A stretch of 64,000 nucleotides of DNA, taken from Escherichia coli (GTDB lineage: Bacteria; Pseudomonadota; Gammaproteobacteria; Enterobacterales; Enterobacteriaceae). Numbering within the stretch: position 1 is the stretch's first letter; every line of letters begins with the position of its first letter. Both the position numbers and the translations under genes were made by a program. Of this stretch, positions 24,803 to 25,141 are shown piece by piece. The stretch lies in NCBI RefSeq assembly GCF_003018255.1, contig NZ_CP027440.1; one strand, 5' to 3'. The notes under the pieces are model-generated. The model ran no database searches, was not told where the DNA came from, and saw only the letters and a program-made list of their open reading frames with translations.

Positions 24803-25141
24803 ATGAGCGGAAAACCGGCGGCGCGCCAGGGCGACATGACGCAGTATGGCGGTAGCATTGTCCAGGGTTCAGCCGGGGTGCGCATCGGTGCCCCCACCGG
24901 CGTGGCCTGTTCGGTGTGCCCCGGCGGGGTGACGTCCGGCCATCCGGTCAATCCGCTGCTCGGTGCGAAGGTCCTTCCCGGCGAAACCGACCTTGCCCTG
25001 CCCTGCCCGGCCCGCTGCCGTTCATCCTCTCCCGCACCTACAGCAGTTACCGGACAAAAACGCCCGCGCCGATGGGGAGCCTCGGCCCCGGCTGGAAAAT
25101 GCCTGCGGATATCCGCTTACAGCTGCGCGATAACACACTGA
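24803..25141 (+). pseudogene. rhs N-terminal fragment carrying the PAAR motif, out of frame with the rhs body
   Basis: Begins MSGKPAARQGDMTQYGG… (PAARxGD motif); after …GETDLALP the frame departs from the conserved Rhs sequence and stops at 25141; the conserved sequence continues in another frame (next feature). Confidence 0.6.

Follow-up and report, generated by a model that had tools for sequence, protein, structure and literature searches.

A pentanucleotide frameshift at the rhsA locus of Escherichia coli: probable origin by slippage and occurrence at paralogous rhs loci

How an Rhs gene of Escherichia coli came to be divided between two reading frames, and what the division means for its product, is the question raised by the stretch of DNA described here. 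This stretch (the window, 64 kb in its entirety) is a portion of the E. coli chromosome from yiaK to the waa region, and the frameshifted rhs gene (24803-28950) sits between yibF and yibH on its plus strand, as do all parts of the gene placed below. The site is the rhsA locus, which is position 10 in Jackson et al. 2009 (PMC2935791). A first-pass annotation of the window attributed the frame change to a short duplication and offered three explanations: a pseudogene, a sequencing or assembly indel, or a slippage-prone site that uncouples the PAAR tip from the body of the protein. The evidence assembled here makes it very probable that the rhsA frameshift is a genuine, inherited loss-of-function mutation, made by slippage, whose allele has been copied between paralogues.

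The pentanucleotide tract and the break in frame

The letters at window positions 24996-25005 are CCCTGCCCTG, a CCCTG-CCCTG duplication. It is an equivalent phasing of one extra unit in a slightly longer tract at 24995-25014, GCCCT GCCCT GCCCG GCCCG, which consists of four GCCCK units. The wild type has three units, GCCCT GCCCG GCCCG, in ~3,880 complete E. coli genomes, and encodes A-L-P-G-P at codons 65-69 of clade-I rhs genes. When the gene is aligned to the intact rhsA of CFSAN061763, a 5-nt gap falls at the duplication, and removal of 5 nt in silico yields a single Rhs open reading frame (ORF) of 1,380 aa with one terminal stop. The proposal that a duplicated CCCTG frameshifts rhs is thus confirmed, both by the three-unit homologues and by the restored ORF. 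The opposite possibility, that intact homologues carry the duplicated pentamer in frame, is contradicted by the alignment, in which intact orthologues have three units. The tract is the sole (GCCCN)>=3 tract of the window. Tandem 5-mers occur at 78 positions within the window, so that a tandem 5-mer alone is unremarkable; its significance lies in the frame break and in the comparison with homologues.

With the extra unit, codon 67 is the last to be read in the native frame, and C68 stands where the wild type has G68. The resulting ORF1 (24803-25141) encodes 112 aa, of which 67 are native (MSGKPAARQGD...GETDLALP) and 45 are out of frame (CPARCRSSS...), and ends at the TGA at 25139-25141. The PAAR-bearing start is therefore read natively, as the first-pass annotation held, for 67 codons rather than the 62 it had counted. 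The body ORF (24916-28950) lies in the -1 frame and comprises 1,344 codons counted from an arbitrary GTG; 1,313 codons past the break remain open. Matches to RHS_repeat, PF03527 and TIGR03696 place the YD-repeat shell, the RHS core and the toxin in this ORF. Exactly this gene is labelled 'RHS element core protein, frameshifted' by the Prokaryotic Genome Annotation Pipeline in strains JNE112863 and JNE23-011. With the identical allele so labelled in both strains, the pseudogene option is the one that was borne out.

Distribution, probable origin and probable spread of the allele

The distribution of the allele was obtained with a 601-nt query against a reference set of 5,426 complete E. coli genomes. 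Matches over 596 nt, i.e. without the extra unit, were found in 3,879 records, and the full 601 nt was matched only by JNE23-011 and JNE112863. A third record in the band of at least 99% identity is probably the single record with less than 80% coverage. The exact 112-aa ORF1 product corresponds to the public protein record ELE52104.1, from E. coli KTE75. It was also found on nine further contigs, all with the identical four-unit tract: GCA_000351685.1, GCA_018683095.1, GCA_946062125.1, the Logan run ERR9955105 and five ENA assemblies of gut metagenomes. Because many independent projects share the allele, assembly error is excluded for it. The window itself is collinear with JNE112863 over 64 kb, with 0 indels and 30 mismatches. 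The frameshifted rhsA of JNE23-011 has an additional in-frame deletion of 72 bp, equivalent to window 27154-27225, which neither the window nor JNE112863 shares; the flanks of this deletion in JNE23-011 show no obvious microhomology. A 66-nt tract variant in SW4848 was dropped as evidence, the assembly being noisy and its rhsA split into about 12 ORFs.

Recurrent changes of ±1 unit are a signature of slipped-strand mispairing, and replication slippage would add one GCCCT unit to a three-unit repeat. Other alleles of the tract, several of them in unrelated strains, fit such an origin. A gain of GCCCG (GCCCT GCCCG GCCCG GCCCG) on a GACATC background is present on seven contigs, among them those with rhsA and rhsC of GCA_964242085.1. 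A gain of GCCCT is found on a further background at the rpmE/priA locus. Losses of a unit occur in strain G47-1 (GCCCT, at rhsB) and in strain SL112 (GCCCG), both annotated 'frameshifted', and NIPH17_0036 has a complex +1 change at the tract. On this comparison of alleles the tract is a recurrent site of ±5-nt frameshifts, a mutational warm spot. The part of the first-pass annotation that concerned a slippage-prone site is upheld in this respect, as the origin of the mutation, by the (GCCCK)3 repeat and by the independent +5 and -5 alleles elsewhere. Tract variants are nevertheless rare: the allele of the window is in 2 of the 5,426 complete genomes, about 3 others carry other tract alleles, and three units are kept in >99.9%. 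At this rarity (roughly 5/5,426), unit changes do not make a contingency locus of the tract.

The rhs cores at the yibF (rhsA), kdp/ybfA (rhsC) and nikR (rhsB) loci are about 99% identical, and the null allele occurs at all three loci. It is present at rhsA in all lineage members seen, at rhsC in JNE23-011 and GCA_018683095.1, and at rhsB in ERR9955105 and two metagenome contigs. The rhsB gene is intact in JNE23-011 and JNE112863, and rhsC is intact in JNE112863. Between these two near-clonal strains, rhsC differs by the 5-nt unit and by four SNPs (single-nucleotide polymorphisms) 108-132 nt upstream. At the corresponding positions 24862, 24880, 24883 and 24886, the rhsC of JNE23-011 has the rhsA alleles and that of JNE112863 has other alleles. 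The duplication-bearing rhsB copies have rhsB-type markers up to 24886, and the two markers on either side of the tract, at 24901 and 25026, are of the rhsA/C type. The rhsA of the window likewise holds markers typical of another locus. It differs from the JNE rhsA at 19 sites within 24826-27528, against 11 differing sites in the other 61 kb, and 14 of the 14 differing markers in 25429-26582 match the rhsB of JNE23-011. The interval 25429-26582 of the window rhsA is thus read as a gene-conversion tract of rhsB-locus alleles from the same lineage.

Because the markers are clustered and co-transferred, these differences are attributed to gene conversion between loci, which in one case transferred the null allele. 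The linked markers are observed directly, and they indicate conversion between rhs paralogues as the putative mechanism. Gene conversion would have carried the frameshifted segment among the rhsA, rhsC and rhsB loci of the lineage, and rhsA could be repaired by conversion or by a slippage event that removes one unit. Four SNPs, at 24826, 25072, 25363 and 27528, are specific to the window and occur in no other allele carrier or paralogue examined; the G>A change at 25072 replaces Val with Met (PAPMGSL) and creates a new in-frame ATG in the body ORF. The vgrG-linked Rhs of the aspV type VI secretion system (T6SS) island was considered as donor of these four SNPs and rejected at 76% identity.

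Consequence for the protein and alternative explanations

The closest solved relative of the restored protein is Tse5 of Pseudomonas aeruginosa, and the Tse5 shell chain, 8cp6_B, has its first residue opposite P48 of the restored protein in the alignment. Secretion of Tse5 requires a 47-residue 'PAAR-like' N-terminal peptide, which is cleaved off at K47|P48 and anchored by plug residues 48-124, the DUF6531 domain (PMC10684867). The E. coli gene is laid out in the same manner. Residues 1-47 (24803-24943) form a PAAR-like peptide equivalent to the Tse5 N-terminal peptide, as judged from partial PAAR alignments and from the alignment at P48, and 24944-25176 encodes the DUF6531 N-terminal plug of the Rhs cage. 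Pfam PF20148 (DUF6531) matches residues 46-123 of the restored protein (E=1.4e-17), and does so only after the in-silico removal of 5 nt; the actual sequence splits the domain between frames at residue 67/68. The break therefore falls after the 20th plug residue, 20 residues past the position homologous to the N-terminal cleavage site of Tse5.

A full PAAR domain has about 90 aa, three PAAR repeats and a score above the family threshold. The restored protein gives no Pfam match to the PAAR domain PF05488 even at E<=10. Its residues 2-29 align only with positions 68-94 of the 94-position T6SS PAAR model NF033420, at 15.2 bits where the cut-off is 124, and alignments to PAAR proteins of the PDB are confined to the final 27-28 residues of those proteins (67-93 of 4jiv_D). 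The letters of the PAAR motif pointed out by the first-pass annotation are thus present as a 47-aa PAAR-like peptide and not as a full PAAR domain. At least 10 PF05593 matches at E<=0.001 mark the YD/RHS repeats of the restored protein. Compared with the Rhs/YD-repeat T6SS effector family (NCBIfam NF041261, RHS element core protein), the gene has the YD shell and the core, toxin and immunity organisation, and lacks a contiguous plug and a single uninterrupted ORF.

As the gene stands, ORF1 retains the PAAR-like peptide and loses whatever would hold this peptide to the cage, and the body is left without residues 1-67. Translation from the normal start gives a 112-aa peptide with 47 PAAR-like residues, 20 of DUF6531 and 45 out of frame. 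The -1 frame holds the YD-repeat shell together with the aspartyl-protease core and HExxH toxin, none of which has a start signal of its own. No Shine-Dalgarno sequence was found for the body ORF near the break. The in-frame starts at 24916-25243, scored by anti-Shine-Dalgarno (anti-SD) pairing, have energies of -2.7 to -4.6 kcal/mol, which are ordinary for start-like triplets of the window; the true start has -5.2 kcal/mol, and only 25243 comes close to it among the body starts. A Shine-Dalgarno-like GGAGG precedes the GTG at 25399, about 200 codons into the gene, and was judged a chance match. From this layout it would follow that no deliverable effector is made from rhsA.

Three other explanations have to be set against that of an inherited null allele. 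A sequencing or assembly artefact, behind which the genome would in truth carry three units and an undamaged rhsA, is very improbable. Short GC-rich repeats, like rhs cores in several copies, do invite errors, as the many spurious rhsA frameshifts of the noisy SW4848 assembly illustrate. An error would nevertheless have to reproduce the identical four-unit tract in two complete genomes, KTE75, NCBI assemblies, a Logan run and metagenome contigs from different projects, and to leave the window free of indels relative to JNE112863 across 64 kb. The indel option of the first-pass annotation is rejected on the same ground, the identical product and tract being found on at least nine independent contigs or assemblies besides the two complete genomes. 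A functional split, in which -1 frameshifting or separate translation of the body yields an active effector and the PAAR-like peptide acts in trans, is just as hard to credit. In its favour, the 47-aa N-terminal peptide of Tse5 is naturally cleaved and remains non-covalently bound, and gene callers place the start of a second gene at the ATG at 25099. A scan of the overlap for canonical -1 frameshift heptamers, read in the ORF1 frame, found no X XXY YYZ, and thousands of intact homologues are single ORFs, so that the features of programmed -1 frameshifting are missing. The ordinary anti-SD energies of the body starts speak against separate translation, and such a product would lack or garble the plug residues 48-97 that anchor the N-terminal peptide. 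The idea that the slippage site uncouples the PAAR tip from the body is accordingly not supported: a slippery heptamer is missing, as is a Shine-Dalgarno sequence near the break for the body, and the break lies inside DUF6531.

The third explanation is a reversible ON/OFF switch (phase variation), in which gain and loss of tract units, together with conversion that draws on intact or silent paralogues, varies which Rhs effectors are expressed. It is unlikely, if somewhat less so than the other two. In its favour, gains and losses of one unit are seen on several backgrounds, rhsC is frameshifted in JNE23-011 and intact in the near-clonal JNE112863, rhsB is intact or frameshifted within the clade, and the body ORF is still open over 1,313 codons. 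Other points speak against it. Known contingency loci carry many repeat units, and this tract has just 3-4; a long tract whose unit number varies among relatives or within a population is not what is seen here, given the constancy of the three-unit form. The rhsC difference is accompanied by linked SNPs and is thus a recombination event, not a slip. The conserved A-L-P-G-P motif, written in GC-rich codons, accounts for the repeat, and an open body ORF is expected of a young or conversion-refreshed pseudogene. With a correspondingly small chance, the (GCCCK)3 tract and conversion among rhsA, rhsB and rhsC might form a low-frequency reversible switch that silences and reactivates single Rhs effectors. 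If that were true, the immunity genes would stay on, lineages would vary their T6SS effector repertoire, and frameshifted copies would serve as silent cassettes.

Several observations weigh against the account of slippage followed by copying between paralogues. One rhsC-locus metagenome contig has the rhsC haplotype of JNE112863 plus the extra unit, with identical flanking markers. As this haplotype occurs with and without the extra unit, some rhsC transitions may be pure slippage. Short-read polishing or collapse of ~99% identical repeats could mimic gene conversion; the states of the paralogues were taken from public assemblies, and the metagenome contigs have only 4-5x coverage. An enrichment of frameshifts at the tract over the rest of rhs would be conjecture: in a protein search with the first 267 restored residues, meant to place truncating mutations along the 5' end of rhs, the best 120 matches were almost all contig-end partials and yielded no distribution of frameshift positions. 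The loss of rhsA function is likewise deduced from assembled sequence. With these points taken into account, the rhsA of the window is an ordinary slippage pseudogene.

Neighbouring features and relation to known systems

Toxin and immunity gene: The rhsA gene ends in a polymorphic C-terminal toxin (28549-28947), recognised from motifs and weak family matches. Such genes are characterised by an RHS-associated core that ends in PxxxxDPxGL, with a variable toxin and then an immunity gene behind it, and this arrangement is found here. The C-terminal core scores 85.2 bits with TIGR03696 (cut-off 32.5) and matches PF03527 (RHS) with E=7e-15. The DPLGL motif occupies residues 1243-1247 of the restored protein and is followed by 133 aa, with the zinc-metallopeptidase motif HEMGH from residue 1342. 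The toxin tip has weak matches to Peptidase_M91 (E=0.005) and MXAN_6640_HExxH (E=0.035). An intact gene for a 136-aa protein (29008-29418, plus strand; WP_000861664.1, hypothetical protein) lies directly downstream in all relatives. It has no Pfam or NCBIfam match and is, by its position, the probable cognate immunity gene.

Downstream relic: Beyond rhsA and its immunity gene, 29443-29505 encodes an rhs-type PAAR-like N-terminus that contains two in-frame stops, 'MSGKPAVY*GDAMLKDSPIV*'. Next, in a different frame, comes a 91-aa ORF (29507-29782) whose match to the Tlde1 domain is weak (E=0.0013); the Imm57 immunity gene behind that ORF (29787-30308) is intact. The interval 29443-30308 looks like a decayed mini-module, an orphan toxin/immunity relic.

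T6SS-1 island: The vgrG-linked Rhs of the T6SS-1 island (aspV) in this lineage shares the MSGKPAARQGD N-terminus. It is apparently intact, with the tract GCGCT GCCCG GCCCG (JNE112863, 262230 onward). The VasL-domain gene of the island is annotated frameshifted (JNE112863, 239174-240584).

Remainder of the window: A Fic family protein gene at 17869-19164, between aldB and yiaY, appears to be a lineage-specific insertion, since neither CFSAN061763 nor the more distant allele carrier GCA_946062125.1 has it. A YadA-like trimeric autotransporter gene of 5.25 kb (38968-44220) contains diverged tandem repeats of ~230 nt, 81-91% identical, at about 40344-41562. Between mtlA and mtlD (34727-35013) there is a direct repeat of ~135 nt at 96% identity, and an exact 32-nt copy of part of it follows the YadA-like gene at 44250-44281. 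Both the repeat and the copy are probably intergenic repeats of the repetitive extragenic palindromic or bacterial interspersed mosaic element (REP/BIME) type.

Clade-I rhs and Tse5: The gene belongs with the clade-I rhs genes of E. coli (Jackson et al. 2009, PMC2935791), with the same locus, the same core and the same core/tip/immunity organisation. That study catalogued rhs pseudogenes at several loci, found the cores at positions 5 and 9-11 almost identical, and judged inter-locus core recombination "infrequent (if any)" (PMC2935791). In contrast, the close strains compared here are set apart by conversion tracts that link positions 5, 9 and 10, one of which carries the null allele. The likeness to P. 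aeruginosa Tse5 (PDB 8cp6; PMC10684867) extends from the same 47-residue PAAR-like peptide and the P48-V-N-P-x-L-G-x-K that opens the DUF6531 plug to the YD shell and a C-terminal toxin that an aspartyl protease releases. Tse5, however, is intact and experimentally characterised, whereas cleavage of the E. coli RhsA at H47|P48 is predicted from the alignment only. The Tse5 toxin is pore-forming, and the toxin here is an HExxH peptidase-like domain.

Repeat-driven systems of Neisseria: The opa genes of Neisseria, with pentanucleotide CTCTT repeats, are simple-sequence contingency loci. As in rhs, gain or loss of a 5-nt unit within the coding region shifts the frame. Tracts of the opa type are built from many units and differ in almost every isolate, in contrast to the three-unit rhs tract and its near invariance; the complete E. 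coli genomes give no sign of selection for repetitiveness of the rhs tract. Neisseria pilE/pilS is a case of interlocus gene conversion among repeated genes. The rhs loci resemble it in the non-reciprocal copying of short segments between paralogues, here including a frameshift, and differ from it in showing no evidence of a dedicated mechanism or adaptive use. The rhs conversion tracts look like ordinary homologous recombination between ~99% identical repeats.

Much of this is already known, the gene family being well known and the allele being flagged in RefSeq for the sister strains. Two points may be of use to specialists, and neither changes the understanding of Rhs effector function. The three-unit repeat at codons 65-69 of clade-I rhs is a recurrent site of ±5-nt frameshifts. 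Near-clonal strains differ by rhs conversion tracts, one of which would spread a null allele, and this adds a note on concerted evolution. For annotation, the locus is best treated not as two genes but as one frameshifted rhsA pseudogene followed by an intact immunity gene.
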